Shown: one piece after another, positions 754 to 56,100 of the stretch
Layout of the letters: every line of letters starts with the position of its first letter
Position numbering within the stretch: the first letter of the stretch is position 1
Assembly (NCBI GenBank): GCA_047495785.1
Contig: JBLDXI010000003.1
Span: 4,216,001-4,280,000 of the forward strand
DNA length: 64,000 bases
Direction of reading: 5' to 3'
Origin: Lepidodermella squamata
Taxonomy: Eukaryota; Animalia; Gastrotricha
Made by a program: the position numbers and the translations under genes
The notes under the pieces: model-generated
Databases searched by the model: none
The model's input: the letters and a program-made list of their open reading frames with translations, nothing else
What the model was told of the DNA's origin: nothing

Positions 754-1172
754 TTACTTCCCGAATTGGACCCAACGCGGTGCTGAAAAAATTGTCCGAA
801 ATAAAATATTGTTATTTCATGTTGACAAAAATACTTACGTTTTGCGTTGCCGAACCCTGCGTCTCGCTTTCTGTCCTCCTTATGATTTTTGTTGTACCTG
901 CGCAATTGAGGAAACAGGACCTTCATGAAGCGACCTCGTTTTTCCTCGTTCTCCATGTCATCGTCGCCGAGACTCAGGTCATCTAGCTCGAAGTCATCAT
1001 CGCCACGACGTACATAATCGATTTCTGCAATTCGAGATCAAACAAATTGATGATTTATCATTGATGATTGGAAGGTTTTACCTGCAGGTTCCAATAATTC
1101 CGCGCCAACGAAAACAGCTATAAGTGCAACAACGAACACCAAAATTAACAATGTCTTGGAGGACGGTGCCAT
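754..1172 (-). CDS. secreted neuropeptide-like precursor A (101 aa), ends …RKR-DAGFGNAKPPRWVQF-GK*
   Basis: Exons 1172-1082, 1024-839, 782-754 with phase-1 GT-AG introns of 57 and 56 nt; signal peptide MAPSSKTLLILVFVVALIAVFVGA, acidic spacer, KR and RKR sites, terminal G-K amidation signal. Confidence 0.8.
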
Positions 1173-1706
1173 ATTTCCGAGTGAAAGAAATTTGAAAAAT
1201 TCCGATATAACAAAATGTTCAAGGAATGAGCTCAATAATCGCGAATACTGGAAGATTTCCGAGAATCAAGGCATTAATATGCGACGATGGACATATGTCA
1301 CCCTCAGTCAGTCCATCGCGTGGCTTCGATTGAGGCACACGCAAAATTGGGTCACAGCCTCTCATCTTGCCGATGAGTTCGAAATTCGCGTGCCTGAAAA
1401 TTTATAACGCCCTTTATCCTCCCACCACACTATGACTGATCAACGAGTACAGATGAATCACTTTGTTTTTCCCAACTGAGCAACGTGGCTGAATGCTGAA
1501 TGCTGTTTTTAACATCTCAGAGAAAACAATTTATTTGGATAAAACATTCAAACAATATAAAAAGTTGGAAGTTTCACTGCGCACTAAACGAGCAGAACGT
1601 TTCACTTGACATGGCTAAGACCAATTTCAAAAATTAACCAACCAGGTACTACAGTAACTGCGAACGCAACTTATGATAAACGATAAGTATATTAGGGAAG
1701 CATGCG

Positions 1707-2150
1707 TCATCTTCCGAAACCTAGCCATCGAGCTGACATTTTAAAGAAACACAATCATATGAATAAATTATCTAGTCATTGGGTGAATGCCCTCGAAAGG
1801 CGGTTACCATTTCGGTTAATGCTTCCTCCGATCGAAAATTTGTGGTCATCGACGTTGAGGGTGGCGAAGTTGTTGTTGGAAGCTCGGCCACTGAACGTCG
1901 AAATGCGCCTACCTCCAGCACTCGGACTTCGAAAATAGGCTGACGGATGGCGATACAGTTGTTTGGCTTCTTCACTTGACCTTGGATCGTTAGCTTTGAC
2001 GTAGAAAAATGAATAAAAAACAATGCTATAATCGTAATTTTGCAGGTTACCTATTTTCTTCCGCATGGCTTCCCAAAATGCTTCGCAGGTATTTACCATC
2101 ATCAGGGCTAGCATAACGCTCAGTAATAAGCAGAAAAGTTGGCTCTTCAT
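1707..2150 (-). CDS. secreted neuropeptide-like precursor B (103 aa), ends …NRNARWLGF-GR*
   Basis: Exons 2150-2051, 1993-1808, 1732-1707 with phase-1 introns of 57 and 75 nt; signal peptide MKSQLFCLLLSVMLALMMVNTCEA, GRR site, terminal G-R; minus-strand AATAAA at 1530-1535. Confidence 0.8.
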
Positions 2151-2736
2151 TTCAAATACGCAATGAAACTTTCAACTGTATTATTTTATCAATAATGTGA
2201 GGGAGAAATAAATTATAAACGACTCCCTACGACTCAGGCCATGCGGCGAAAAAACAATTACATGCGCTGGTGAGCGCTTTCGAACTGGTGTGTTTAATTC
2301 AATTTGACGACTGGCCGATCCCACGGGGCCACAAAGCGGAAGCACATGTCTTCAAAGTTTTCGTAGGGTTCAGCTGAAAGCAATCTAAGGCTCGGAAAAT
2401 GCGTCACATCGCGCGGCCCTCATTTGACGGTAGCTATGACGCGGTACCAAACTGACAATAGGGCGAGTAGTGTCCATTTTCCGGCTTTTTTCGCCCACCC
2501 ACCTCTTTTTGGGCGATCTCATGTACGGAATAATTGTAAGAGATTACGATTTTTATAGCCCCGAAAACCTTGCCATCAAATTCCATTAAAACCTTAATTG
2601 CTGCTGCAATAATTATTTTATTCATTTTTTTCAACTCGAAATGCTAGGTTATATATTGAAAGTGGATAACAACAACGTCACCATGACTTGAAATCGAAGA
2701 AGTATTCCTGGAGACATCGCTGGATTCACATCCTTC

Positions 2737-3436
2737 TCATTTTCCAAATCCAAGCCAAGAACCTATGTTATAAAATAAGTTATATAAAAATGGTTTCTAC
2801 GCTGTAGCCTTACAAGTTCGTTTATGCACTCGATGCTTCTTAGGAAAGAGAACCTGTGACAGCTTTCCTTGTTCCTCTCCACCGCCGTTGCCGTCATCGC
2901 CTTCCAGAGCAAAATCTGGCGAGTTAATATGAAACAGTTAAAAATAATACGGAGGGGAGGGGGCATAGGGATTACTAAAAGATGGAATCTCAGCATCAGA
3001 GTAGTCGGAAAAAATAGGAGGTCGGTTAATTTCCAAGTACTTTACCAAACGTTTCAAGATTATTTAATTATTAGATTAATTTGTGGCGCTTTTCTACCAC
3101 TTGAGCATTAAATTTAAATAGGAAATTGGTAAGAAAAGCCTTAGGATCATCAATCGAAAGAGTATTGGAAAATGAAAAATGTCTTCGGATTGAACAACGG
3201 ATAAAATTCGTGATCCAATTTTCACGGCAAAGCGTTATTTCATTCTTCTGTTTGAGGGCATAGGTATTAAGTTTGGAATATTTCCTCTGATTCCCCTATT
3301 GCAAGTCTAATAGGTTTTGCCAAATGAAGTTGAAACATTTATTTTTACCTGAACTTTCACAGCAGACTTCTCCGTTTGTAAATATGAGGAATAACGCGAT
3401 AATCGTTAGTAGAACAGCGAAAGCAGTTCTGGACAT
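2737..3436 (-). CDS. secreted neuropeptide-like precursor C (71 aa), ends …KR-TCSWLGF-GK*
   Basis: Exons 3436-3349, 2915-2814, 2762-2737 with phase-1 introns; signal peptide MSRTAFAVLLTIIALFLIFTNG; shares DFxL…EE..G….VLFP with precursor A; minus-strand AATAAA at 2617-2622. Confidence 0.78.
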
Positions 3437-4349: not shown

Positions 4350-6234
4350 TCAGTTCCATATCGCGTCGAACGCGTCACCCCGGGGAGGCGCCGTCGTCGG
4401 AGCGGCTGGGTTCGTTGTTTTGTTCGGGCCGGGAGGAGATTGTTGAAAGCCAGCGGGTACAAAATTTCCGGTCATGGCGCCGCCCATTCCCATTGAAGCA
4501 TAGCCTTGTTGCTGAAGTGAAAAAAGCGTAATCATAATTTTCGTAAAAAAAAATTTGCGCTCTAATTGAGGATCAGGCCTTGAACAGAAATTCACGAGGA
4601 ATTTTAGCGTAATTTAATTGGATTTTTTAATTAATCGTAAAATTCCAGAAAATTCCGAAACGGCATTCATGGCGAATTCATTGACATTTGTTTCCGCTAA
4701 AATTAAGACTTCTGTAAATTATCTGAATTATAGTTCTTACCATGGGCGGTTGCTGCATTTGCGGCGAAGGGAAAGCACCAAATCCACCGAAAGCGCTTTG
4801 CATCGGCTGCTGCATCGGCTGCTGCATCGGCTGCTGCACCGGCGCTGCCGGGTTGGCACCGAACGCCCCGAATCCCCCGCCTAACGCTGCCGGCGAGGTC
4901 GCATCTGAAAAATTGCGCTGATGGCCATGCATGCTAGGCGGCGAGGCAAAGGCTGACGACTGCTGGGGGAACCCAGCAGGCGGGGCACCGAATGCAGGCG
5001 CAGGTGTCTGCTTGTACAGAGACAGGATGTCATCGAGACCGCCCGAAGCAGGGGCTGCGGGCGCCGCTGCCTGTTGGTTGTTCATCATCGACATCAAGTC
5101 GTAATTCGACACACTGCGCTGGTGGTGTTGGTTCGGGTGGGTCGACGAGTTTTGAGGTGGCGCTGGCGACAGGAACGACAAGTCGTCAAACGCCGATTGT
5201 GTCGCGCTGTGGTTCAACGTCGGCGGTTTCTCGGCTGAGGAAGGCGCAGATGGGGGCGCGATTTGCAGCGAACCCATGCCGGCCGCAAGATTCGCATCGC
5301 TGGACGCCTGGATTGTCTGACTCGGGCCTTCGTCGAAGAAATCGATGATAGCCGATTGTTTCGGTTGACTCACTGGCTGAGCCGGGGCTGTTTGATGCTG
5401 TTGCTGTTGCTGCTGCTGGTGAGAGCTGTTTGGCGAGTGGTGGGATGCTGAGCCGCTGGTTGGTGCCGGGGGTAGGATGAAAGCGCCGCCGGTTTGACCT
5501 CGATGCCGCTCGTGGTGCGGTTCTGGGGCCGATGACGCGGTCGCTTCGAGCGGCTTCGGTCTCGGCGTCTCGAAGTTTATACTCCTGTCAACATAGCGCT
5601 TTTGCTCATATTTAGCGCGAATGAACTGTTCGAGCGCATAGTCCGTCTGCGGCCTGCGGAAATTTTCCGGCAACAGCGCTTCGTAAACCAATTTGGCACG
5701 CCTGTTTCCCATCTGCTGGAGGATTGAAACCTGGTCGTCATTCCTAAAAAAAAGAATAATAAATTGAAACCTTCCGTACCAAAGATGAAAAATTAGCAGT
5801 AAAATTACAAAAAGGAAAGCTAAATTGATGCATCTTGCCTAAAATTCTTCAAATAATTTCTCATTAACCGTCATATTATGATTGTTTATATTGCCTTCAG
5901 CCACCTTATTGATTAATTTCGATTCATTTTTAGGAATGAGATGTGAATTCAGCCTTCAAGCCAACTTAATAAAATCTCGCCAAGCCTACCATGTGTCGAG
6001 ATTGACCGATCTCACGCGGGAGATGTGAACGCCGAGGTTGCGGTGGATTCCGGCACACCGGATGCATAGGAACACGCCGATGTTCCAGGCCGCCCAACGC
6101 GGGCCTTTCGCCTCACAGTCGGCGCAATATTTGTTGTCTTCCTCTTTGAGAATGTCGGCGAGCACGATTTGCAAAAAGTCTTGCCGCGCCTTCTCGTTCT
6201 TCTTCGCAGCTGCTGCCGAGGCCGCAGATGACAT
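4350..6234 (-). CDS. SMAP1: stromal membrane-associated protein (SMAP1/2) ArfGAP
   Basis: ArfGAP zinc finger CADC…[22 protein letters not shown] and 'DDILSLY' motif; exons about 6234-5989, 5743-4741, 4511-4350. Confidence 0.92.
4800..4837 (-). repeat. 12-bp coding tandem repeat (QQPM)x3
   Basis: catcggctgctg repeated three times inside SMAP exon 2. Confidence 0.85.
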
Positions 6235-7299
6235 CGCTCAAGGCCCGGTTAGTTGAACTTTAAAAGAGGCCTAAATATTTGGAAGAAAGCAAATCTTAGT
6301 AGACATTTCTTTTTCAGGACATTTTGTTGCGTTTTCGCTTCATCATTCATGAATTGCCTCTCGTAGAAAATAGAAAAATCGCATTTGTTGAAAGAGTTGA
6401 TGCGTTACAGTACATATCGGTTTCTTTCAACATGGTCGCAATAATAATAATAGTAATAACATAAAGAACAAAAGCTAGATGAACACGGGAAAAAACGGGA
6501 CCGTCGCAATGATTAAAAGCTGTCGGGGCAATCTTCTCTAGACAAGCAATCGAGAGTCACATAGTTGGGCGAGGACGACGAGAGGCTGTCTTTTGAACAC
6601 GCAAAGCCGAAGGGGCACGCCAACTGCCAGCAGTTGAAGCAGAGTAGAATCGAAAGCGCCGCGAAGATCAGCGTGCAAATCGTGCACGGGCGCCGTTCGA
6701 TGAAAAAATCAATAAGATAAATCACCAGGAAAACTGCTTGTTGATGCACATGAAGGGCCATGATGGGCTAAAATATCAATTTTCGTACAGCAGAACACCA
6801 TAATATTTTACCAACTCACTTTAGGTAGGAGGAGAACCGGTAACAGCCATTGTAAACAGTACATTATCTCTAATGTACTGACGAAGTTCAACCGCAATTA
6901 ATCAAAAACGGTTGTCTAAAAAGTGAGTAAAAATTCAACATTTTCGAGAGAATCTTTATTGGCAAAAATCAAAGACATATGAGCCTGTGTATTCTTTTAA
7001 TAACGATAATTCCTCATCATTTCATGACGAGAGCCACTATACAGATATAGGACGCATCGGCTACAGATTTAGTTGACACCGATAGAACGTCTAATTTTTG
7101 TATTTATAATATCCTAACGCACGCCGCTAACCACATCGTCCATATGCTTCGAAATACGCTATATATCACTGGAAAAGAAGCGTTTTGTTTAGTATTTTCG
7201 AAAATATTCCACAAAAGTCGGCATCTACTCGAAAAAATTCGCGTAGATCAATATCGATTGTGAACACACTCGGTAAAAAAGGTGACTGGTTTTGAGGAG

Positions 7300-8491
7300 T
7301 TATGGCAAATGTTGCCGAATTGCGTCCTTGGCCTTAGAATCTAGCTTTTCGGGGAAGATGATGTCGAATTCGACCAGGATATCGCCGAAATTGGCTTGAT
7401 CTTTGGGCAGCGGTAGACCGTATCCGGGTATACGTTTTACCGTACCAGGCTTTATCACGTCGGTCAATTTTAGCCCCACAGACTCGCCTTTCAATGTAGG
7501 GATTTGTAAATCAGCTCCTAGAAGTGCCTAAAATTTGTTAATTACGAATAAATCTTACGCATGTCATGCATTCAATAAAATTACTTGTTTTAACGTGATA
7601 GGTGCTTTATACTTCAAGTCTGAGCCGTCTCGAGTAAAAACAGGATGAGGTTTGTCCTTGATGACAAAGACAACATCAGCAGGAACGGCGCCGGGACGCT
7701 GGTCACCTTTCTTCGGAAAAGTTATTTTCGTGCCAGCTTTCCAGCCTTTCTTAATATCAACTTCCACGATCTCCTCTTCTTGCCGGGATGATCTATTTTG
7801 ATGAATCATTTTATATTAAAAAGAATTAGTAAAGGGTTATCAAACAAACCCTTGTGATGTATAAATAGTGCGTTTGATCTTCATTCGTTTGGTGGCTCCG
7901 GTATAAATGTCTTCCAATGCCACAGGGAGATCACGTACAACAGCGGGGTCTTGTTGTCGTCTTTGGCCCCGAGATTGGAACATTCCCCCATGTCCATGAT
8001 CCATGCCGTCGAAATCGCCTCCATCGAAGCCGCCAGGTCCACCAAAAAACATTGAGCGAGATGAACCAGCACCGCCGAAACCACCAAACATTCCGCCAAA
8101 TGGATCCTCATCGCCAAAAAACATTCTGAATGTCTGGAACGGGTCTCCGTGAAATTCATAAAAGCCCTGCCCTCCAGCTCCATGACCACCTGGTCCATGT
8201 CCACCAGCCCCACCCATTTTCAAACCATCTTCGCCGTATTTGTCGTAAATTTCCTTTTTCTTCGGATCAGATAGCACCTCATAAGCTTCAGCTATTTCTT
8301 TGAATTTCTCCTCGGCATTTGGGGATTTATTCTACAGGAAAAGAAAAACAATAAGGAACTGGCATTCAAACAATTATAAAAATTACCTTGTCGGGGTGAT
8401 ACTTCAAGGCCATCTTTCGATATGCCTTTTTCAATTCATCATCGGAGGCGTCTTTCGTCGTACCCAAAATCTTGTAATAGTCTTTTCCCAT
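7300..8491 (-). CDS. DNAJB4: class II Hsp40 (DNAJB1/4/5-like)
   Basis: J domain [10 protein letters not shown]…YHPDK, G/F-rich region, C-terminal [12 protein letters not shown]; 4 exons. Confidence 0.93.
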
Positions 8492-8624
8492 TTTGATTGA
8501 GTAAGATGTAAATGATCTAATGAAGGAGGTATAGATCAAGATTGATGTCTAAATAAATTTTGATTGAGTAAGATGTAAATGATCTAATGAAGGAGGTATA
8601 GATCAAGATTGATGTCTAAATAAA
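8490..8624. repeat. perfect 67-bp tandem duplication abutting the DNAJB start codon
   Basis: attttgattgagtaagatg…gatgtctaaataa occurs at 8490-8556 and 8557-8623. Confidence 0.95.
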
Positions 8625-9017
8625 GGAAAAATTCAGAAAATAGAAACCATCAAATGACAGAGACACCCTCTATGTTCTATGGCTAATAAGGAATGTATTT
8701 TCCTCTGCTCATGACTTAATGAATAGAGTTTTCGAAGGAACCGAAGATGAATACAGGAAAAGTGTTTCTGCATTCCGTGCCATCCTATATTGCTTAATTC
8801 ATATGCTTGGAGGATATACAAACACTATAAAGTGATAATATAATAATGTGAAACTTTAATTATCAATTTTCCCTATATGAAACGCGTACAACTAAGAGAA
8901 CGTAGTGAGCGTGGACAGTCTCAAGAATATAGTGGAAGGGAGCTAAGAGCGATCATGATAGAGAGTGATAGCTGCGAACAATGGTGAAGCGAGGACGGAA
9001 ATTAGGTCACCTTCTTT

Positions 9018-9042
9018 ATTCCAGAATATTCTAGAATGTTCC
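9018..9042. promoter_or_regulatory. heat shock element (5 alternating nGAAn units)
   Basis: aTTCc aGAAt aTTCt aGAAt gTTCc, about 530 bp upstream of the DNAJB ATG. Confidence 0.85.
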
Positions 9043-10014
9043 ACAAGCCGACAGGTTTCGTTTTCGAATATTCAGATCTTTCGAAAAATGCCGAGGACTT
9101 GCGTAAAATAAAAGTAGGAACAAACAACTATTATAGAAAAGAAACATTATGCATTGTGTTTTGTGCTGAAACATAAGAAAACTGCAAAAACAGATCGGAT
9201 TCGGAGTTCGGCTCGGCGATCGCCAGGTAAAGGTGGGGAACCGAAGCTTCGATGATGAGAACTCCAACGTCGATCAAACTTTTTCAAAAAATTCTGTCGT
9301 TTAATAAAAAATATTTTATTCAAAAAAATGAATTCAAAACATTAGGAAAAATAAATTTGTTCATTAATAATTAGTACAAAATTATGTTGCTGCCGCAGTA
9401 AGACGTGACAAAATCGGCCCGATCGTTTACCGTTTACCGTTAACCCATTCACTGTGACACAATGTTACTGTTAACGATTAACCGTTAGCCGATCATAGCC
9501 GATCATGCTGTTGAAAAGATGTAATATACTGCCTCATTTTTCTCCTGATCAGCCTAGGCCTATACGTAATGTAATGTAGGAATGTAATGTAATCCGAGGC
9601 GATTTTCAAAAACAAATTCGCCATACTTTTTAAAACGCAAGTTTCCCGGAAACTTGGCGAACAATTGGCTCAGATTTCAGCCTTTGGCTGGGAGTGCTTG
9701 GAATGCCGGGCAACCCTTTGGTAATTAGATAGTAATTGGTAATTTCTCCTAATGTTGCTAGTCCGGGTTTTTAAAGGGGCCTCGCTGACTTTCCAAAAGC
9801 ACTCTAACGAGTATGTCCTGTGCACAAACCCTGTCTCAAAGTGAATCTCTTGGTTCTTGGTATCATCTGAGATATATTTGCCACAAACCGGATTCGAATT
9901 TCACAAATAAACTATTCCAAGTTACTTCAAGGTGCAAGCCGAGGAATTTGACGCACGAAGCATGTTGAAGAATAAAATTAGTATTTTTCAGAAAAATGAC
10001 GATTTTTTTATTAA

Positions 10015-18097: not shown

Positions 18098-18844
18098 GGC
18101 AACATCAATTAATCAAATTGTGCTCCTAAAATATGAAATAATGACAACAGTACAATAAATGCTGCTGAATTTAGTGGTTACAGTTTTTATTCACAATGCG
18201 CGGAGGCCAACGCGCGCGCGCAAAACGCACGCGAAAACGAACAACGAAGAGCGTAAAACAAAAGATGACGGCGATGAAGACACACGGTAGCAAGCGAAAT
18301 TGACACTAACTCATACCATAAACGCAAGTACACACACTTGGCATTAGTGTCGCTTCTCGCAGCAGCAATCGAATGAACTAACATAATGTACGCTAATTGT
18401 TACAAGTGGCTAAATGATAATGCGGCATTATTTATTTTCATAATATTAACAAGCGGCATAAATGAAACTTAATGATGAGTGCTCACAACTTCTGCGAAGT
18501 CGCCTGGGATATATTTATTTCATATTTTCACTGCGGTGAGTGCCAAGCTACATATCACGTTTCACGCGTCGTTTTTGACTGAATGAAGGCACCACCAGAT
18601 GATGATGATGATACGCGGCAAGATACATATACACCAATTCAAAGGAAGTGGTATACCTACAAAAACAATGAGAACGAATCAATTGCCACGCACGCACACG
18701 AGAGATACATCATTCGCCAAAAAAAGAAGAAGAAAAATCGTCATCACAACATCACCTATCGCTGCTTGTAATCACACACGTTTTTCTTTTGAATGTTATC
18801 TATTCTGCCTAGCTTCACCGCCTGTTGTTTGTCTGTTGTCTGGT

Positions 18845-19476
18845 CTAATCGTCGCCATGCTCGCTTCCACTGCGACCGTCGTCCGATTCGCGACGTCCGT
18901 TGGTCGCATTTCCGTTGTCGTTTGCGTGATTCGCAGGGCTGCCAGACCTAGAACGGCTCCTGGACCTGAAAAAATGTGGTTAAACAGATTAGACACGCCA
19001 TTTCGACGAGATATATTTCGCAGAAAAGAACTGAAATTGATTTCTCTAGCGCGATCGAGTCGACTTGCATGAATCCTATCGGTCGGAAAAGCCGCTAATA
19101 GCACTAAATTCAGTCCCGCTTTCGACTTAAACCCGTAATTCGCTATTTTACCTGTCGGGATACACCTTTCATAGCTTTGATTTGATGGTTTGAAAATAGT
19201 AGTAGTATTTTGTTTGCGATAGTTGTCGGCGTTGGTGGTGAGAGTGCGAGAGAACAAATCATCGACAGCGCCCAACGCACGAAGCAACCTCGACGAGAGA
19301 CAGACATCGACCTTCGAACAGCCAACTACCCGAAAAGAATGGGTGAGCAGCGCGCGCGCAGTTCGAACGAGAATTTGTGAAATTGAACGCGGTTTGTCTG
19401 AATGGTCTGGGGCAATTTTAGCCACACTGTCTCGTAGTGGTAGTATCAGTCACACGGTGAAAGTTCAGATTTTGTA

Positions 19477-19508
<32 letters not shown>

Positions 19509-20279
19509 TTGGTTTGTATATTGATAGTTTTGGGAGGAGTAGTTTTCGGCTTGTCTCGAAACGAGCTAGTACCGCTAGTCAACGCATCGTAATAAATAAC
19601 AACAAACAATATTTCAAAACCAAAACAATCGAGAAATGCGGAAAATTATTGAGAACAGAACGAAAAAAACGAGGAAAAACTGCTAATGAAATTTTAAGGT
19701 GGAGCGGAACATACCTCGCAGCTGGTGAAGGGCTGCGGCTGTCATTTCTGCGCTTTGCGCGATCAGCTGATGAACGGCTAGCCGGGGGTGGCGAGCGGGA
19801 ACGGGAGCGAGAACGGCGTGAAGGGCGGCGGGGCGAGCGGGAGCGGCGGCGCGGAGGAGGGCTGCGGCTTCGGCTGCGACGGTCACCGCCACGGTCGCGG
19901 CGCGAATAGCCACCGCGGTCTCGTTCCAAATCGCGACCGTGAGGCGTGCCCTTAGCCAGCTCGACGATCACACGCTCGCCGCACAAATCCTTACCGTTCA
20001 GATCGTACACCGCGTCTTCAGCATCACGAGGATTATCAAAGTCCTGCACAAAACCAGCATTATATCAGTTTTCTCAGAGAAACGAATGGACTCACCACAA
20101 AACCATAACCATTCTTGAGCTGTACATCAACGATTTTTCCGTAGCCTTTGAAAAATCGTTCGACATCACGTTGAGTCGCACGGTACGACAAACGACCAAG
20201 ATAAATTCGAGATCGGACAGGCTAATTCAATTAAAAAAATTAGAAAACCAGAAATAAGAGAACGTAAAAACCTTACCAT
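18845..20279 (-). CDS. SR splicing factor (SRSF4/5/6-type RRM plus RS domain)
   Basis: ATG-only exon 1; RRM RIYLGRL…KNGYGFV|[18 protein letters not shown]; RS repeats; last exon 18965-18845 ([11 protein letters not shown]…GDD*) after a 749-nt intron. Confidence 0.9.
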
Positions 20280-20685
20280 GCTGCGTTAATCCTTAATAAG
20301 ACTCAAATCTCACTTAACAGCTCTAGAAACAGACGAAATGAAGATAAATCAATTCTGTCGCTTTTACGCAAAAAGGAATATTTTCCGGAATGAAACAAAT
20401 GGAACAACAAAACAGGCACTGAGGATTGCCGTCGCCAGAAAAAGAAGTCTCAACAATGGAACGTTGAAAAAGTAGTAATTTGTGAGCAAATATTATCACT
20501 TCGTTGATAGTAATCATCATATTATTATTGATTTAACTAACGGATTTTTCACAAACAATGGAAAGAGACATCGCTGGAATTGCTGTTTCTTTATGGCGAT
20601 TCGACTAGACTTGCGCGTATAAAAGACACAAAAATTATAGGAAATATTAAAATTTTCGATTTTTTTTATGGACGAGTGTGGACTC

Positions 20686-23326
20686 TCAATCACCGAGCAG
20701 TTTTTCCACGTCACCAGGAAAATCACAAAGTGTCTTGATATCCGAGTTTGAAATAAGCATCGCCAAATCAGGCGACGCAGGCGCGTGATTGAACAAATCT
20801 GAAAAACCCATTTCTGATCGACAAATGAAATGAAAATTGACCAAATGACCAAGTACCTGAGACTTCATCGACGCAGAAATTCGTAACAAAATTGTGGTGG
20901 TGGCGCGAAAATGACAGAAATTCCATGCGCTCTCGTTCACGGCGCAGCTTTAACAGCAAAAAGCGACGCATCAACTTAGCATGAACCCTCGCTGCCAAAT
21001 TGAGCCTGGGCGCCAAAAATTTGACTTTGCCACCCGCGGCATATCGCTTATCGATCTGCCGCATGTCGTGCAAAAATGGCGGAGGTAGATTGTTGATATC
21101 CGAACTCGGTTGCTTGTTCGAGTCTGGATAGTGGTTGTAGCGCGATCGATGCCGCTTCAGGTCGCCGGGTCGGAAAAATCGCGATGGGCATACACCACAC
21201 GCCAAAGAGCTCAGCGGATCAGCTTCGGTTGGCTCTCGCCTTTCGAAAGCATTTTCATCGCCGTGTCGACGCAACGCGTGCTTCTTCATGTCAGTGTAAC
21301 GATCAGTGCGATAAGGGCAGTGTTTGCAAATGCACTGAAGATTCGAGTTTGAGGTAGCTGAAGTCGGTCGAGAGGAATTGGACGAGCTTGAAATTACAGA
21401 AATCGCGTCGTGCATTATCGGTTTTTGCTGCAGCTGGTCATTCAGGTGAAACGAGGCTAAATGGGTCAGTAAGTCGAATTGCTGCGATGTCACGAACCCG
21501 CAGTCTGTGAAGTGACACGTGTTCACCGCTGTGTTCTCAGACCTCGGAAAATGAGCATGTGCATAATGAACAGCCAGCTGCAGGTAGTCTTTCGCCGTTT
21601 CCTGGCACGACGGACACTTAGCAACGGAACCGCGTTTACACGCATAGGCACTACTATCGGGTCGAAAATGGTGTTTCCGGCCGAGGTGTATCATCAGACT
21701 GCGAAAAATACCGGTCGAAAACTCGCCGCATTTCGGGCAATGCAGCTTGAAACTACTGCTGTCGTCCCCAGCAATAGGCTTCTCCTCGGCATTTTCCGCA
21801 TCGCTGCCAGCAGATATATTACTAACGTTCAAATCCTCGCCTTCTTCAACAGTCGCGAGAGTTCGTCGAATGTTCGACCGCAAAATCCGGCCGGTTTGAT
21901 TTTTGTAATTCTCAAACATGGTGTTAGACACCTGAAGACCGTCAATCATTTTGACAGGAGGAGGACTGGTCTCCACTCCCGTCAGCTGGTTCATCACCCT
22001 TTGTGCTAAATGCGCGATTTCAGTAGGATTTAAATCTTCGTTACGGTGTATTGCCGAGATGAAACTTCCGAGAGATTCAACCAGCAGTTTTGTCTGATCG
22101 TTAGATAACGACCCGCAATTACTGTGACTGTCGCATTCGTCATCAACAGCGCTAAAACTGAGATCGGCATCAATTCCATGAATCGTTTTCAGAGTTATCA
22201 ACTCCTTCGCCATAGCGGAATTTTTCTTCTGGTAAGTGGCAAGCTGGCTTTCAGCATTGTTAACCCGCTTCTTCAGCTGAGCCAACTCTTGCCGTAACGA
22301 CGCTAGTGTCGCCTCGCTTTTACAGCGTTCGCCGTCACGGGTTTTCGTTTCGTTGAGCAATTTTTCCCGAACACTTTTCAGCTCAGCTTTCAGTATGGCC
22401 TCGGCTCTTTTTGATAGCGACAGCTCTTTACGGAGCCTTTCCACCGCTGAGCCGTCGTGCGAGGCCGAAGATGTTTCGCTGCCTAATAGGCACTCCTTAA
22501 CAGCCGCGAATACATTAGGGCTCGCGCGGCTAGAAGCAAGTTTTCGCGCTCGTTTCTTCTTAATAGCCGAAACAAGACTGGGCGATGTTTTAATTGAACG
22601 CTTGGAAGGCGATGACGATTTCAACGGTTTCAAGTCAGCACCATCTAACAGTGCTTTTTTCAACCTCGGCTTTTTCAGGTTTTTTGCTGCTGGTTGCGGT
22701 TCAGGCATCACCTCCGATGACTCATTCGGAGGTAGTTCAACTATTTCTACCACGCCATCCTTCAATTGCGGCTTATTTAGCGGAGGGATCAGCGTGGATG
22801 TAAACTGATCCGGGTCGGAGGCTGAGTGCTCAGTTAACGTTGAAATAGGCGGCAGCTGTGGTCGAGGATTGAATAGGCTATTTGAGGCACGATTAGATGA
22901 TGATCTAGACTGAACGATTACGACAGGGTTAGCCGTTTTCACCGGCTCTTGTACAACAATTATTCTGGAGTTGCAAGTTGGAACACTTTGTGAGTATTGG
23001 GAAGGATTCATTTGAGCTCTGAAAATTTGCTGCTGTTGCTGAGGTAAAACCGATCTCGTAGGAGCTGATTGCTGCTGAACGGGCACTTGATTCAAAGGCA
23101 TACCATACGGGTATCGAAACGTCGGCTGCGGGACTATCGGACCATTATTTGATATCGCTGGGCCGGAAGTGGAGATTAAATTTGAAGAACTCGTTGAGCT
23201 TGAGGCAGCGAGATTGACCGGTCGCAGCAGACCGATCGATGTCTTGAGCAGTTCGTTGATCGGCGGCAACTTTGATTGCTGCAGCAACATGGGAAGCTGC
23301 TTGCTCCCACCGCTGTTCACACTCAT
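20686..23326 (-). CDS. coiled-coil plus multi-C2H2 zinc-finger protein
   Basis: Q/S/P-rich N-terminus, coiled coil, five C-x2-4-C…H-x3-5-H fingers; a short terminal intron leads to …EKLLGD* at 20686. Confidence 0.8.
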
Positions 23327-23439
23327 TTTTCAAGTAAACATTTCTAAACCCTACAAAACATAAAATCACTTGAAATTTGAGCAATGAACTTCTGGCAAAA
23401 TAAAATAATATCGAGAAAGCGCAACAACAACAAGATTGA

Positions 23440-24025
23440 CTACTTGGTGAACGGGTCGACTGTGACGACACAAGCTAGAACATCAGCGCTCAACTTTTTC
23501 TTCGACTTCTCAGGCTTCTCATCCTCAGACGAAGAAGATGACGATGACGATGCATCTTTTTGGCGCTTCAGCTTCAATTCTTTAGCGCGCTTGTTATGAG
23601 CCTCTGTTTGCTTAACCAAGTCTGTCTTCTTACTCTCGAATTCGGCTTCTGTCGACGGTAGAGGGACTTTCGAACTAGAGAGTAGATGCATTTCAGCGGG
23701 CGGATGTAGGAAACCTTTCAGTTTCTTCGACTGCATAGGCAGCGTTTCATCGTCAGATTTTTCACAGAACTCCAGCTCACTACGCGACAGAAAGCCAAAT
23801 GACATCGAAACCGAGTGAACTTATCGATCAATACCTATCGAGATAGCTGAAGAGCTTTTTGGCGAGAAATTTCTTCTGCTCAGCATCTTCATCCTTCGTT
23901 TCGTCCACAGGCTTGATTTCCGGCTTTTTGGAGCCACAAAACGCCGGATCTACCGCACTAGCGAATTTCGCACGGTCTTCATCTTCGCTAGATGAATCCG
24001 AAGAACTTTTCGCCTTTTTCGGCAT
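23440..24025 (-). CDS. CUSTOS: protein CUSTOS (C12orf43-like)
   Basis: SSDSSSEDE…FASAV, FLAKKLFSYLD, second S/E tract followed by ACVV; 2 exons. Confidence 0.65.
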
Positions 24026-31014: not shown

Positions 31015-31175
31015 TTTGTGTCATTTGCTCAAACAAGCTTTAAGCTGCATTTTTATGTCTCTTTGTCGTTTGATGTATCTGGGGTTTAAACCCGCGACTT
31101 TTTGGTTACAATAACATGGTGTCTTCGACAAGTCATGCTCTTTATTTAATTTTTAGATTTTTTAAATCTGAAAGC

Positions 31176-32298
31176 ATGGCTAAACTTGACCAATTGGATC
31201 CACGTTGGATTGTTGAGTTTCGCCCTGACCACAACAATCCGAACAACTGGCATTGGGTGGAGAAAGACGCGTCTGAATGGTCTCGCACCAAGATTAAGGA
31301 GCTTCTGAAGAAGATTGTCGTGGGTGATGAGAAAATCGGCGAGTGTCGCATAAAAGACGTCACCGAGATTTCTGGTGACGTTACGGCAAACAACCGCAAA
31401 GGTAAACTCATTTTCCTGATCGACCTGAAGATTAAGATGGACTGGGAGGGCCGTGTCGGCGGCGACTCGACTGTTTACAAAGGCGAGGTTGTAATTCCTG
31501 AGTTTGATGACGTGAACGTAGACTCGTGCACGATGGAGTGTTCTGTCAAAGCTACCACCGACCCTGCGCTTATGCTCAAAGAAGTCATGCGTACGAAAGG
31601 TATCGATGCGGTCCGGGCTCAACTGGTAGAGTACTTGCGGTTATTAAGGGAAGAGTATAGTCGAGACTTAATTCTGCCCACGCCGAAAGATGCCTCTGCA
31701 AAGTCACCCCCTGTCGCGAAATCAGCCGCACCCGCCTCGTCTAGCAACGGCTCTCAAACCGTGGTTTCGGGGCAACAACCCGTAAAAATCGACTGCACAA
31801 GTCTGTCGTTCGAAGAAGTGTTTCGATGCCCGGCAACTCAAGTCTACATGGCGCTGACCGAAGAAGGTTCACTCAAGGCAATGTGCGGCGGCGAGGCGGA
31901 GGTGAATGCAGTGCCTGGCGGTCGGTTCTCCCTGTATAACGGTGCCATTCAGGGTGAATTCGTAAAACTCGAGCCTTTCAAGCGCATCGTGCAGCGGTGG
32001 CGTCTACGCACTTGGGGCAACGACGCGCATTACTCTGAAGTCACGATGACAATTAACGAAAGTAGCAGTGGCGACACTATCCTTCAATTGTCTCAAACAG
32101 GCGTTCCTACCAAATACTTAGAAGGTAAATTTATCTAACTATTTTGAGCTATTTGAGTTATCTGGAGGACTATATTTGGGCTCGTTATACAGCTATTAAA
32201 TATGTTTTTCTAATATTTCAGATACCAAGAACGGCTGGCATCGCAACTTCTTTGATCGCCTCAAAGCGGTACATGGTTTTGCGGCAATGATGATGTGA
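31176..32298 (+). CDS. AHSA1: activator of Hsp90 ATPase 1
   Basis: DPRWIVE, NPNNWHWVEKDA, NNRKGKLIF, C-terminal AHSA1 domain; last exon 32222-32298. Confidence 0.95.
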
Positions 32299-48600: not shown

Positions 48601-50926
48601 TCTGATTTTGACCTTTACGCAGTATCGCCACAACCGTGCCTTGATTTCGACGGTTCAATCTACGTCGCTAGGGTGTCTAGATCTGGAGACTGGCCGCGTG
48701 ATCTGGAGCTTTGTCCCATCCAGCGCGAATGAAGATGATCTGTACGCGGTGACAATGATGGATCCGAAAAATGACACACTTTACGCGATAACGCAGTTCG
48801 GTACAATCGTAGTTCTGCCCTGCTCGAAAATGCCAGCGTCTGATGTGACAGCTGAGTCGCTGAAACAACTCACGACCTCGGCTTTCCGACTCTTTACAGC
48901 TTCGCCTATCACATGTGCAGCAATTTTGTCGTTCACTGATTCAGACAACAATCCCAAGTCGATATTGCTGATTGGCGCCGGTTCGTTTGTATATCGTATT
49001 GATCTCAACAACACGGCCGATCGAGCGCCGAGTGACGTTGCGAAGATTCACATTCCACTGACGAGGTCCAGCGATTCAGATGCGAAACAAATGGAGGAAG
49101 ATATGAGTGATGTCAGCCTAGTCAGGCAAATTGTCTCTGCACAAACTGCTGTTAATTCGGACAAAGGTTCGATTACTCGATAAAATTATTTTCCTTGGAC
49201 TAATGTTATAGTTTCAGATTTACTGTTCTGGTGGGCGCTGTGCGACGGCTCGCCGTGCTTGATTCTATACGCTATGAGAAAATCGAATCCTTTGCATTGC
49301 CAGATTTTAACAACACTCAGCGGGACAAGTTGCTCGGTAAATCTTTTTCTCTAAATATTGGCTTTTTTGTTAAAATTTCGAACATGGCAATCGAATAATA
49401 ATCAGCTATCCCCTACTACTGGTCATTTCCGATCGAGTGGTTTGTTGCCGAGTGCGAAAAATGCGCCTCAAGTAATTTGAGAAGGGCTTTTGTGGTTGAT
49501 TTTTGCCCCGAATTTTTAGTAAAGCGCTATACTTCATTTAGGCTTTCTACCCCTGAATTTTATGTTTATATGCTGAGTGTTTCTATTATTTCCAGTCGCT
49601 TCGAATTTCTTTTAATTATTCTATTATAAAATTGAGATTTTCTTCATTTATTTCCAGCCGAATTGTATAATGCTGCTTCCGAGGCCTTCTGCTCGAACTA
49701 TGTCAAGTTGCGAGCCAGCTCAAAACCACGAGGGAATTTCAATAACGTTCAGCAATGCCTCATCGGCGAGTTGCGACGATAGCGATTCGGCGAAGGGTGC
49801 GGAATCTGAATTCGAAGGCCTGCTAGTTGGCTGGCCCAACGGATCTATTTTTCAATGGCACATCAACACCGAGAGACTGTCGTCTTTGTTGGCTAATATG
49901 TCAGCGCCGAGCTTGGACAATTCGACAAACAACTTTCCTTGCAACTGCGGTTGCATTCTACAACCGAGCATTAGCTTGCTACCTTCGGCGCCCAAGTCTT
50001 TCCAAGTTCAATTGTCCTTCCAAAAAGGAGCTCCTTTTGCTTCTGATTCTGACAATGACGTATGGTTTTCGAATTATAATAATTCATAAAATATATTCAA
50101 TGACATTTGTAGAGCGGTAAAAACATTTTGTCCGCAGTGCGGAAGGCTTTTGTGTCGGCTTTTCTGCCTTCGTTATCTAAAAATAACAGCAAGCAGCAAT
50201 TGCTCACTCCAGGGACGTCGAAAACTGGCTCAGCTTCGATGCCTTCTGTGATTACGGCTCCACCGCGTTTTCTACCTACGCGGCAATCTCGCCGCATGCC
50301 GAACCGAAACGGATCGTTTCTGTATTCGACTAGAATCGTTAATTCAACAGCAAATCAAACCGATGCGTCTCAGATTGAAAACACGAGTGATCCTAGCGTG
50401 TCATCGACCGGTCATATAAACCCTTTCTCGAGCACTTTCTCTTCTATCAACGCCAGCAATGGTGTTGAAAGCCCTTTCTCGCCTGTCTCCCCAGTTCGAG
50501 AGTGCAAAATGAACAACTGCTTTCGGCTTCTTTCTGTTTCAAATGTCTTCCGAAGTGACTGCCCTGTTAATTGGATGGCGATGACGCAATGTCATCAAAT
50601 GGGAAAGTAATATTTTTTCATAATTTTTCGGGTTCGCGTTTCAAATATCGGCATTCTCTGTTACAAGGTTGATATGGGCTTTCCAGTTGGAATGGTTGGT
50701 TTGCAAGGAGAACGCAGCCTCAACTCAGCAAGTCGCAATACTGCATATTGGCGACGAGTCAAATGGCATCGCTGAATCCCAGCCGAAAAAGGGCGATGCC
50801 TACTGCTACACCCCTAAATCAACGCGGCATTTGCCTAATTATTTCTTCTCACCCCAACAGCGCTATGACAATTGGAGGACGATAAACGTTGCGATGAAAC
50901 TTCAGCCCGAAAGTAAACCGTCTTGA
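45609..50926 (+). CDS. PH-coiled coil-TBC Rab-GAP (TBC1D2-like) with long C-terminal extension
   Basis: PH-like start (SGYL…W…), YVDDFGF, IPERMRPEIW, QILVDIRRT, GYCQG|INFIAAVLL, FRTLLRIWDYF; about 7 exons; 5' end and last exons uncertain. Confidence 0.8.
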
Positions 50927-53162
50927 ATAATTCTAAGATCATTGACTGTTTCACTTCTACATTTCCTATTGTCACGTGGATCGGAAAATTCGATTCCTTT
51001 GATATATTTTAACTTACTATATACTACATCTCCGGTGAATGTAAAACTCAAAAATGCGCAACTGGTACAGCAAGTCATATTATTTAATAAACTGTCTGAG
51101 CTAAAGGAGAAGGTTGTAATTATTGGAAATATCCCCGACGACCAGAAACAATCGCCTGAAATAAATCACTGTCTAATGGAACGTGGGAATAACAAAATCC
51201 CACGATAAATATACATCAAGCGTCAACTCTAAATTCCTCTCTCAAAAACCGCCCATCACCGCCCATCACCCATTCACAATAAGTCCAAGTCGACGCAAAT
51301 CCCCGCCAACCATTCAAAACGCTGAGCAAGTTAGCGGTCCTATCACCATTTCTTCAGCGCGAAATTTGCCGTGCTGAATGTGTCAAGGTGAAATTCGATC
51401 TCAGTTCGAGACATAACGCGTTGAATCTAGTTGAGATCTTCGAACAGAACAGTCAATTTGACCGGATCAGCTTTGGTTGCGTGAGCACAGGCCAAAGGTG
51501 CTTCCGATCATTTTTCTCACTTCATGGATTATTCGTGACATGTAATAAATTGCCCTGGCTCCTGGTTTGAACCCCTTTCGCAAAAGCACCAGACTTTACT
51601 TATGACTTGTGACCAGGAATGCGCATTTCAACATCCCAGATCCCCGATGTAAAGAAATTTGGAACCTGCCCAATGCGGCGCACTACTGACTAGGTCTATC
51701 GGCTAGGCATGGTGTCTCTTTCAACATATAACTAAAACCCAAGTCAATAAGAGTGGAAGTATACCTATTCTTCAGGAATCATTGAACCAGCGCGTAACTT
51801 CCAGACTTGCGCAACCACATAGTTTCATGCAACACAAACTACTTTTAATTTGTTGTTAAAATAATATAAATAATTTAAAATATATGATTAGTACTGATTA
51901 TGTATAAATATTATAAATTATGTTGTCTTTCACAGTATTTCCGCTTTTCAAAACCGCCCGCGGCTCCTTGGCGTCTTACGGCTTTTGAGTTTTGGCATCA
52001 ATCTTCTAGATTTTAGACTGGCCCTTGGGACAATATCTGCGCAACGCCCTTAGCACATAGCACATAGACTGACTAAAGGTCCACTGTATGTTCTGTTTTC
52101 TGTTACCGGTTACCGGTCACTCTTATAACGACCACGATCACGCGACCGCTATTTAAGATGGAGCTTTGCTCAAGCCGTGCATTTAAGACTACTTGCGTCT
52201 ATGAACCGGTAATTGGCGCTTGGCAGTAGTATTCTATTCGTATCATTTTCGCGTGGTGTTACTTGTTTATTTTCGTATGTTCCTGCTTTTCCAATCATGA
52301 CTTGGAAATGCCCACTTTCCCGTTATTGCAGCCTTTAGAGCGTAAGTCGTGTTGAGTTATCCGTTTACCGTAGCTTACTGTAGGGGGTAGCGGGTTAGAC
52401 CTAATGTGTAATATGTCATATTCAGGAATCATATCCACATACAACATACAGTCATCTACCATGCTAGCTCAATAAAAGATATGTCTTGGACCGGTTCATG
52501 AGCCTCGAAAACTTCGTCGCCAGAAATCTGGAAAGAGCTGGTTACACAAAATGAATTGCATGGACTTACAACCAGGCAGCTTCTTCAATCTCTCGGAAGC
52601 CCTGATATTAGTGGGATTTTACATATTGCATGGTTAATTCCAACGTTAAATCTGATCCTATGAATTGGTTTTATATTGTGTGTTATTATGTGAGCTCCCC
52701 ACCTACCACCATTGACAGGCATTATAACGTTCAGGCCTCTTATGACCCATGAAACTTGTTATCTTAGTTCGAAAAAGTAACAAAACTGGCTGCCATCCAC
52801 GCAATATGCATCGGTGTCAGTACAGTACCGATTATCAAAGCCAAGACCCTTTCGGATTCCTTTTTCGATTTTTTTACTGAAGCTCCAATGATCTGTAGCG
52901 CCGGGCCTTTCACAAATTCAAATTGCAAAACATTGGACTAGTTCAATCTTCGCTGTTTTTTGCGCTCCTAAATCACCGCACGCTTCCCTAATAGCTTGAT
53001 GTTCCGGCGATGTGTATGCACTGCAGTAACGCCCTCAACCTGTCAAACTTCTCCCATAAAGTAATTCGTTGGGCTTCAATAAGAATATTCCTCTTTTTCA
53101 ATCTAGGATTGATGTCATTGTTTATGCCTGGCTTAATTTGTTAATGTCTTGGCGATGATGAC

Positions 53163-56100
53163 ATGGGCAATTGTTTGAAATCGAGCGAGTCATCTGGTAA
53201 TCGTGGCAAGCACGTCCCCTACAAAACTCGTGCATTTAGTGGCGAATCTCCATCATCATCCGGAGATACGCATCCCACACCATCCGACAGTGCTGCTGCT
53301 TCTGTCAGAAGCAATGTCCTTGGAAATTCTCATTCCAATGCTTTGATTCTTCAGAATGGATCTCTGCAGTCGGCGAACTTCTTTAAAGACAGCAAAAGCA
53401 ACGGAAGCGGTTTAATCGGCAATAATAGCACGAGCAATGCGTTTGGTATGTTCAATCCAATTTGTTTGTTTATATTAGCAATTTTGCTTCTCGCTGGCAA
53501 ATTTTATTTGGTTGAAAATCGGTATTAATGTGGTGGCGTTAGGTCATTTGAGGTTATGCTTTCCATTCGCTATCAGCGGTACTCTTATTTATCATGCAAG
53601 CGTAGTTGCCATGACATTTGCGTTTGCCTTTTATTAAGCTTTCATGCCGAACACAAATTGCTATCATTTCTCGTGGCGACAATAGCAACCGTAACATATG
53701 AAAAGTGCATTGGTTTTGTTGTTATTGTTGCATTGTGCATTTGTTGCTACGCGGCGGCAGTGTCCTGGTGGCCGGATGGAACTTCCACTGAACTCTCATA
53801 GTCCTCATTACTGGGTACTTCAAGTGAGTAATAGCCGTGAGAGCTTTGGTGATATACGAGCTCAGGTGGTATAAACGTAGTAGTACTATTTAGTTGGTCA
53901 AGCAAATAGTGTCAGAGAAAGAGAGATAGGAGGGACTCGCCTCTCTACCAGGATCTAGGCTGCTGTTTTATTGTCGTTATTACGGTCGCGTTTGATGACG
54001 TCTTAGATCTTACCCGTCTCCTCGCTCTGGGTAAATGACCGCGTATGGGTTCGTTTGCTGGTTCATTACAGCGTTGCCTTGTTCAAATTTCTCGGACCGT
54101 TGTTGCTGTGCGCGCGCGCTCGCTTGCTCGATGTGTATTTACTGTTTCCTGCGTAGCGCCATGGCAAGGCCTTCCATTTAGTACAACTACGACTACCTAC
54201 AATTGTGTCGTCATCGCTTTCACCTAAAACTACGTCGCCCATCCGCTTGTTTGGCTAGCCCGATGCGAAAAGTCAGAGCCGTCGCGAGTTGCCGTTTCGC
54301 GACTCGCGCGCGCATTGCGTGTGTCGCCTGCGCGCGAGCAGATGTTGTTTGTGGCGAGCGAAAGAATAAACACAAAAATTTACATTTCTACATGTTGTTA
54401 TTTATTAGAAGGCGACGACGGTGTGAAAATACATCTTTTCCTTCATTCACCTTGCATGAGGCGGATAGGCTAATACTGTAATGACTCGAAAGGTTAGTTG
54501 CTCGCTTTTATCGCGCTCGCTCGTGCGACACAATTGCGCTGCGGAAAAAGTGCGGTAGTAAATAATAAATCAATACTGGTGGTTTCGTCATCACTGCCGC
54601 TTGCATGTGGACGTTGCAGATTCGGTGTTATTTTAACATTACCAACCACTGTTTTTGTCACGCTTCAAAAGGCAGCGACTTTTTAGCACTTGCATTATTA
54701 ATGAATATCGCCGCCTGAAAAATTTGTAGTTGTTCGTTAGTTTTGACCCGGCGCGTGCGGTGCGGCAAACATACCTATCCACCTGCCATGCTTGCCGACA
54801 TTCCGAGACGTTCAAGTTGTGTTATTGTTCTTATTATTACTACGGCGCGCGCGCGGCTGGTGATGTTATGTTTGGCGGCGAGTTAAATTTAGCGAAAAGA
54901 TAGACGCACCACGCTCCTAATTTGTAACGCGCCGGGGCTTTCACACAAAATAATTTCCATCTGTGGCCCGTGAAATCCCGACGGCGTCTCTGCCTCGCAC
55001 GTATTTCACGCTGAAGTGCCTTGCCCTCGCGTTTGTTTGGGTATTACCAAAGACCCCACCTTAATGTTTGCAGAGAAAACTGAGTTGTAAGATTTCAAAT
55101 TAACTCATTAGTTCCTGTTTCGCGCCACTTGTCTCGCGCTTTTTATTGCCGCGAGGTAACACGCGTTAATTAAGAATGAAAACGAAGAGTGTATAATAAC
55201 AAGAAGCTGTCAGGGCGCTGATGAGAAAATTAATCGATTTGTGTTTTGTTTGTGTATTAAGGCGGACGCAAACCGGCGTGTACGTGGTTCACAGCGCTCT
55301 ACGACTTCACACAACGTGCCGATGAAGAGGTCTCGTTCAAAACAGGCGACATTCTCGAGGCGAAGGCGAATTCGCGCGAAGAGAAAGGTTTCGTCTATGT
55401 TTTCAACCCGCGAACGGGTATGTCCGGTTGGGCGCCGATCAACTATTTGGCGGAAGACACGCGGCAACCGACAAGTCAAATGTACACAAACATTGAATGA
55501 AAATGATAATAATATTGAATTAAAATTTTGTTCGTCACATCAGATACTATTTCAACGTTAACCGCCGCAAGGCTGAAATTATGCTGATGAGACCAAATTT
55601 GTTTACGGGCACGTTCATTTTGCGGCCGTGCGCCGACCAGTCGGGCAACTACTTTGCGCTATCCGTTCGCAATGTTGACGAACGTGGCATGCCCGAAGTC
55701 AAACACTACAAAGTGCGCATGATGGACAACAACTACGGCTGCTACATCTCTCCGAAACGCACCTTCGATGACATCAGACGACTTGTAGATTTCTACTCAA
55801 GTACGTTTCAGTGACCTAATAAGTGACCTAATGAGGGCGCACAGACAAAAATTAAACACTTGAGAGGGAAATTCGCCGGGATGAGAAAGGAAAAATATTC
55901 AAAGCAAATTCGACGAGATACGAAATTTAAGGTGGATTTTTAATAATATTTTAATTTTCATTATTTTTTCTACAGCAAATAACATTCCCGGTATGTGCCG
56001 TCTAACTCAGAGCTTTCCTCACAATCCCCCGCAAGTACCGCTGCGTGACCTGAACATCCCGAAGGACCAAATCCAGCTAATCGACCGGCTCGGCCAGGGC

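Follow-up and report, generated by a model that had tools for sequence, protein, structure and literature searches.

A clustered trio of expressed precursor genes with predicted W-x-x-F-amide ends, likely neuropeptide precursors of a new orphan family

What kind of product is made by three small genes that lie close together on one strand, share one exon plan and end in nearly the same residues? The genes, here called g1, g2 and g3, have been read from the minus strand of the window (the whole stretch of 64 kb of DNA that was analysed), where all of them fall between positions 754 and 3436; the host, an animal, has a compact genome. The reading that we favour, and hold to be probable, is that the trio encodes small secreted precursors that are cut to short amidated peptides with a W-x-x-F end, likely neuropeptides, belonging to a family without a database match.

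A preliminary description had proposed the exon plan and the ends of the three genes, and all three models are indeed present in the sequence. In each of the three genes the first exon measures 88-100 nt, the middle one 102-186 nt and the tiny last one 26-29 nt (29 nt in g1, 26 nt in g2 and g3), and the last exon always ends W-x-x-F-G-K/R-stop. The six introns were said to be all in phase 1, which holds for every one of them, and all have GT-AG borders. In the leftmost gene, g1 (101 aa; exons 1172-1082, 1024-839 and 782-754), the first exon is signal-peptide-like, with Lys6, a hydrophobic core and V-G-A, and cleavage is likely after residue 24. Intron 1 (1025-1081, 57 nt) is followed by an acidic spacer in exon 2 that carries KR59-60, RR72-73 and RKR82-84 and then the start of the terminal peptide, which is interrupted by intron 2 (783-838, 56 nt) and completed by exon 3 with the end W-V-Q-F-G-K-stop. 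The 11-residue segment from KR59-60 to RR72-73 contains the motif VLFP, which is common to g3, a shared spacer feature that the preliminary description had overlooked.

The middle gene, g2 (103 aa; exons 2150-2051, 1993-1808 and 1732-1707), likewise begins with a signal-peptide-like exon, with likely cleavage after residue 24 and with RKK30-32. Its intron 1 (1994-2050, 57 nt) is in frame, exon 2 contains a spacer, RR62-63 and, together with an N-x-N motif, the greater part of a predicted 38-residue peptide (residues 64-101), and beyond the predicted intron 2 (1733-1807, 75 nt) the last exon ends W-L-G-F-G-R-stop. The right-hand gene, g3 (71 aa; exons 3436-3349, 2915-2814 and 2762-2737), has a predicted, signal-peptide-like first exon in which a Cys-Cys pair lies close to where cleavage would occur, a long predicted intron 1 (2916-3348, 433 nt), a short acidic and Gly-containing spacer in exon 2 with the VLFP motif, KK55-56 and KR61-62, an intron 2 of 51 nt (2763-2813), and a last exon that ends W-L-G-F-G-K-stop. 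The tiny last exons conceal the trio from ORF-based annotation.

The three precursor genes are real. The string W-x-x-F-G-K/R-stop occurs three times in the six frames of the 64 kb, as compared with an average of 0.04, and never more than 1, in 200 simulated order-3 Markov windows, and a window-wide screen for the plan, designed after the genes were known, has returned these three genes only. Across the trio, hydropathy peaks at 2.9-3.8 at residues 5-8 and stays at or below 0.5 beyond residue 30, and the sole strongly hydrophobic stretch of each precursor is N-terminal; the signal peptides have been judged by hydropathy alone. The proposal that these are prepropeptides with amidation signals is borne out by the terminal Gly followed by Lys or Arg in all three models, together with the signal-like starts and the basic sites; the last junction is found in cDNA for g1 and g3, and for g2 the intron is retained. 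A dibasic site precedes each predicted peptide, namely RKR82-84 in g1, KR61-62 in g3 and, for the 38-mer, RR62-63 in g2. The co-orientation of the trio is uninformative, because the window from 1 to 29000 is a long same-strand gene block with short gaps, in which the minus strand carries every one of the 12 Pfam-positive ORFs.

Transcription has been followed in two coded sequencing runs that contain the stretch, X1 and X2. X1 has been judged to be cDNA from its GT-AG joints and its adapter-type loose ends, which we take to be cDNA adapter, and the RNA data are the assembled contigs of this one run, which leave 1-450 and 9001-9900 without cover. Finding the six introns in cDNA had been suggested as a check of the models, and four of them are spliced as predicted: both introns of g1, whose first exon lies within an X1 contig (joints 1024/1082 and 782/839), intron 1 of g2, where X1 covers 2051-2129 of the first exon (joint 1993/2051), and intron 2 of g3 (joint 2760/2812, cut +2). 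Exon 1 of g3 lies outside X1 contig cover, a gap to which, as to contig depth, no weight has been given, and within g3 intron 1 the X1 contig is rearranged by inversions; these have been set aside as library or assembly chimeras, since contigs of the nearby P450 gene in the same run have them likewise. In X2, an allele without 101 nt of g3 intron 1 (window 3012-3114) has been seen, along with small indels nearby.

The check has gone the other way for intron 2 of g2, which is crossed unbroken by the single X1 contig at 1733-1807. Read-through meets a stop at 1776-1778 and leads to a 105-aa product without an amidation signal, and if this intron-retained precursor were the main product of g2, the family would shrink to a pair accompanied by a different secreted peptide. 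The sole g2 contig does splice intron 1 while reading through intron 2, and all five neighbouring GT-AG introns listed are spliced in X1. We nevertheless find it unlikely that retention describes the main product, as the donor of intron 2 (GTAACC) is identical to the proven donor of intron 1, and as contigs lose alternative forms; pieces of the g3 introns occur in X1 too. Moreover, the last exon of g2 has kept the W-L-G-F-G-K/R-stop end, and one K/R exchange besides three silent differences is all that sets its stretch from the W to the stop apart from that of g3; this implies that the exon is translated.

The coding sequence of g1 and g2 is shown to be under selection. A complete count gives 13 coding differences between the X1 contigs and the window in these two genes; ten are silent, an excess with p 4e-5, or 7e-4 when a strong transition bias is allowed for. 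In g2 all five coding differences are silent, lying within residues 66-87 in exon 2, while in exon 2 of g1 five silent differences stand beside three replacements, the latter all in spacer pieces. With X2 added, 12 of 15 coding differences are silent among the X2 rows listed, where intron 2 of g1 has eight variants as against none listed in exon 3, and where g3 has no coding variants among the rows listed.

Kinship within the trio is uneven. Aligned outside the signal and the last eight residues, g1 and g3 reach a score of 59, as compared with 22 +/- 4 for shuffles, none of which (0 of 2000) reach 59, and 13 identities including V-L-F-P are found; as judged from this alignment, the two are paralogues, in which the amidated end is conserved and divergence lies elsewhere. 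The middle part of g2 has no detectable similarity to g1 or g3 (p about 0.9), and only the exon plan and the terminus connect g2 with the other two. The trio is likely to have arisen by an old tandem duplication. A cluster of three related neuropeptide genes has a precedent in the nematode RPamide genes nlp-2/22/23 (PMC8764417), in which the peptide motif is unrelated and the analogy is confined to the organisation.

Three short products had been proposed, and the 15-mer of g1 and the 7-mer of g3 stand, while the short peptide of g2 lacks a preceding dibasic site, the nearest being RR62-63, which leads to the 38-mer. Maturation of prohormones comprises removal of the signal peptide, convertase cuts at KR and RR, trimming by carboxypeptidase E and amidation by PAM. 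For the trio, a signal peptide removed near residue 24 (22-26 in g3) would bring each precursor into secretory granules, convertases of the PC1/3 or PC2 type would cleave at KR or RR, the last K or R would be taken off by carboxypeptidase E, and PAM would turn the terminal glycine into the amide. From g1, a 15-mer amide (residues 85-99) and a non-amidated 11-mer would be released, and the 11-mer, with its VLFP between two dibasic sites, may be a second peptide. From g3, a 7-mer amide with one free cysteine (residues 63-69) is predicted, and from g2 the 38-mer amide, possibly trimmed at the single arginines R70, R94 or R97, with short Gly-terminated pieces as possible further products ahead of RR62-63 and R70. 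The conserved aromatic W-x-x-F-amide end is the part that would likely bind a rhodopsin-type GPCR. The predicted peptides are short and weakly charged, with a net side-chain charge of 0 to +2, and the hydrophobic moment of the terminal peptides is low (0.31 in g1, 0.07 in g3).

Does any described family accommodate such peptides? The preliminary description had recognised none, and this holds for the databases and the literature searched. Protein searches with exon 2 of g1 and with the unspliced g2 ORF have each brought up two candidates, none of which was accepted, a profile of the g1 and g3 second exons has found no match among 1.84 billion representatives, Pfam has matched none of five queries at E up to 10, and the best PDB hits (E 0.79 and 0.2) reveal no homologue; Rfam has given no match. 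In the Atlas, the family-bearing rows are mostly peptide-hormone precursors, with all scores below 0.9, and serve as leads only. Searching was done with single exons or with the g2 ORF in unspliced form, the terminal motif being contained only in one 20-residue Pfam query, and sensitivity was low; taken together, these searches amount to weak evidence of absence.

A DNA pattern of acceptor plus W-L/F-G-F-G-K/R-stop has found no viral match and 45 metagenome loci. The latter have been treated as chance occurrences, because 37 of the 45 lie inside other ORFs of at least 160 aa, because the AT content of their acceptors is at most 0.72, as compared with 0.80 and 0.92 in the window, and because tblastn at these loci has found the motif itself and one match at E 0.09 only. 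Literature searches for WLGFamide with spelling variants, for WxxFamide and for a flatworm family name have found nothing, with subscription journals outside their scope, and W-L-G-F-G and W-V-Q-F-G are absent from the accessible portions of the supplements of PMC8557429, PMC6425005, PMC6188537 and PMC8764417. The trio is thus best described as a real, expressed cluster of likely neuropeptide precursors, likely an orphan family that is new but whose kind is well known. Invertebrates that have been poorly sampled often turn out to have orphan families of neuropeptides (PMC6188537, PMC8764417), so that one more such family would by itself be moderately interesting; the minimum gain is three expressed and clustered neuropeptide-type precursors from a lineage without a close named relative in the protein search.

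Of greater consequence would be a link to kisspeptin, a reproductive hormone, as the end of g2 loosely resembles kisspeptin-type peptides, a likeness that had also been overlooked. The closest known kind, as far as the motifs go, may be the kisspeptin type, which we treat as a lead only. As a special case of the neuropeptide explanation, the trio, and g2 above all, could represent precursors of the kisspeptin type that have diverged and whose peptides act on a GPR54-type receptor, a reading that we rate as quite improbable. Kisspeptin-type precursors are characterised by asparagines in the core, by an L-x-F-amide end and by an intron in phase 1 that follows the signal exon (PMC9400282). The L-x-F-amide is found in g2 and g3, at a chance level of 0.04-0.09, whereas g1 has V-x-F. 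The last ten residues of g2 fit N-x-N-x-x-x-L-x-F in the register of human kisspeptin-10, with a chance of about 3e-4 under g2 composition before multiple testing, but only one N is present in g1 and none in g3, and a molluscan FFamide of the SIFamide family fits the same register (PMC8557429). A phase-1 intron separates signal and peptide exons in all three genes, as it follows the signal exon in KPP1 and KISS, a feature that may not be specific to kisspeptins; KISS and KPP1 have two coding exons as against three here (PMC9400282).

Further likenesses are the position of the peptide at or near the end of the precursor and the F-amide itself. A sea-cucumber KP1 precursor stops right after F-G-K, sea-cucumber KP1.1 has N-R-N-A...R-x-L-x-F-G in common with g2, and amphioxus kisspeptin-type peptides, which end W-S-x-F-G, carry a W three residues before the F (PMC9400282). 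The trio differs in that a third coding exon divides the peptide, that the F-G-L core is absent and that W-S-x-F does not occur. The L-type SALMFamide pattern S-x-L-x-F is matched by g3, which would fit the kisspeptin reading. All these motifs were picked after the match was known, and a SIFamide-like K-P-P in g1 has a chance level (9e-4) comparable to that of the g2 motif. Convergence of short peptide motifs has been warned of (PMC6188537), and with several families matching about equally well, the family cannot be assigned from short motifs.

The host's position bears on this as well. Annelids and molluscs carry kisspeptin-type receptors, and the protostome ligands were still unidentified according to a 2026 paper (PMC13020265); for Aplysia, a receptor of this type has been reported and its ligand not found (PMC12509031). 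That the trio, with g2 foremost, supplies these missing ligands in a lophotrochozoan host seems to us a long shot, more doubtful than the kisspeptin reading as such. Against a kisspeptin-type assignment, an AHSA1 protein encoded further along the window is placed next to an ostracod protein at unstarred support, and loss of the clade-2 receptor has been reported for ecdysozoans (PMC13020265). If the idea were true, the W-x-x-F-amide end would provide a search pattern for the kisspeptin-type ligands of annelids and molluscs, and if the likeness holds, the peptides would be cheap and testable candidate ligands for an orphan receptor type whose deorphanisation the field deems critical.

A non-neuronal origin of the trio, as defence, venom or pheromone peptides secreted by a gland, is also distinctly unlikely. 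Skin and venom peptide precursors are known that follow a three-exon plan of signal, acidic spacer and terminal peptide with a G-K end, and tandem duplication, the absence of homologues and the free Cys of the g3 peptide would suit a lineage-specific secretion. In toxins, the signal is usually conserved and the mature end divergent; the trio displays the reverse, with a conserved mature end and a divergent signal. As the mature end is conserved, as the coding variation is mostly silent, and as the peptides are neither cysteine-rich nor strongly cationic (nor, in g1 and g3, of high hydrophobic moment), a neuronal role is preferred over defence.

Much less survives of the assignments to other described neuropeptide families. 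The W-x-x-F-amide spacing had suggested a tie to gastrin and cholecystokinin (CCK), whose chordate members end W-M-D-F-amide; a single peptide near the C-terminus is likewise common to both, and the Q-F-amide end of g1 recurs in the homologue from C. elegans (PMC6219549). However, the hallmark of CCK and sulfakinin peptides is a conserved Tyr 5-7 residues before the amide (PMC8428848, PMC6219549), and membership fails because this tyrosine, with its (D/E)Y(G) context, is missing from all three peptides, which also lack an acidic run before that position. The F-amide is predicted in all three, but only the W and the F of W-M-D-F are present, and W-M-D-F is itself reported to be chordate-specific (PMC6219549), so that divergent CCK or sulfakinin peptides are a highly improbable account of the trio.

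Equally remote is a derivation from rearranged SIFamide/FFamide-type or allatotropin-type peptides. The K-P-P near the F-amide of g1 and the N-x-N...L-x-F of g2 recall SIFamide and molluscan FFamide, and the G-F-amide ends of g2 and g3, together with a G-F start 13 residues before the end of g1, recall allatotropin. Both proposals fail on precursor layout: in the precursors compared, the peptides sit close to the signal peptide, with a long C-terminal extension behind them, which in SIFamide/FF precursors contains two cysteines (PMC8557429), whereas the peptide of the trio is terminal. The terminal residues differ too, as S-I-F, L-F-F, L-L-F and H-G-F ends do not occur; in the spiralian allatotropins compared, an H-G-F/Y-amide end goes with the long extension, neither of which is found here. 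Allatostatin A and buccalin, with Y/F-x-F-G-L/I-amide in many copies (PMC12509031), have been rejected against the single F-amide copies of the trio, and the LxFamides and SSxxxFamides of xenacoelomorphs, lineage-specific orphans with an L-x-F-amide end, have multi-copy precursors unlike the trio (PMC6188537).

The surroundings of the trio offer some further indications of the host. On the plus strand, the AHSA1 gene (31134-32135) encodes a protein with an unusual N-terminus that is common to a metagenome protein, P0001, to which it is 71% identical, the best named relatives reaching 41-43%; these identities would point to a lineage poorly represented in databases. Trees were made with 15 rows (AU tests) and with 29 rows (quick tree only), and among the named rows the one that lies closest is a protein from an ostracod (SH-aLRT 82 and 91, unstarred), while the AU tests reject none of the placements, with p 0.28 for arthropods, 0.19 for spiralians and 0.12 for hemichordates.

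Judged by the distances between genes, the spacing in parts of the window is operon-like. The ArfGAP start near 6234 has a poly(A) loose end some 65 bp away, at 6300, and on the plus strand 120 bp separate the stop of a WD40 ORF from the AHSA1 start (31014/31134). Several ORFs of 100-850 aa at 18796-23820 and 49616-55561 have no Pfam match above cut-off, among them an 853-aa ORF at 20768-23329 with weak matches of coiled-coil type. Shortly before the DnaJ start, on its upstream side, 67 bp are duplicated exactly and in tandem (8490-8624); this duplication may be real or an assembly artefact. A two-exon BC10/BLCAP gene (6516-6864, minus strand; PF06726) has its intron spliced in X1. At the cytochrome P450 gene (10005-11550, minus strand), 61 differences over 718 bases in one X1 contig suggest that a close paralogue exists elsewhere.
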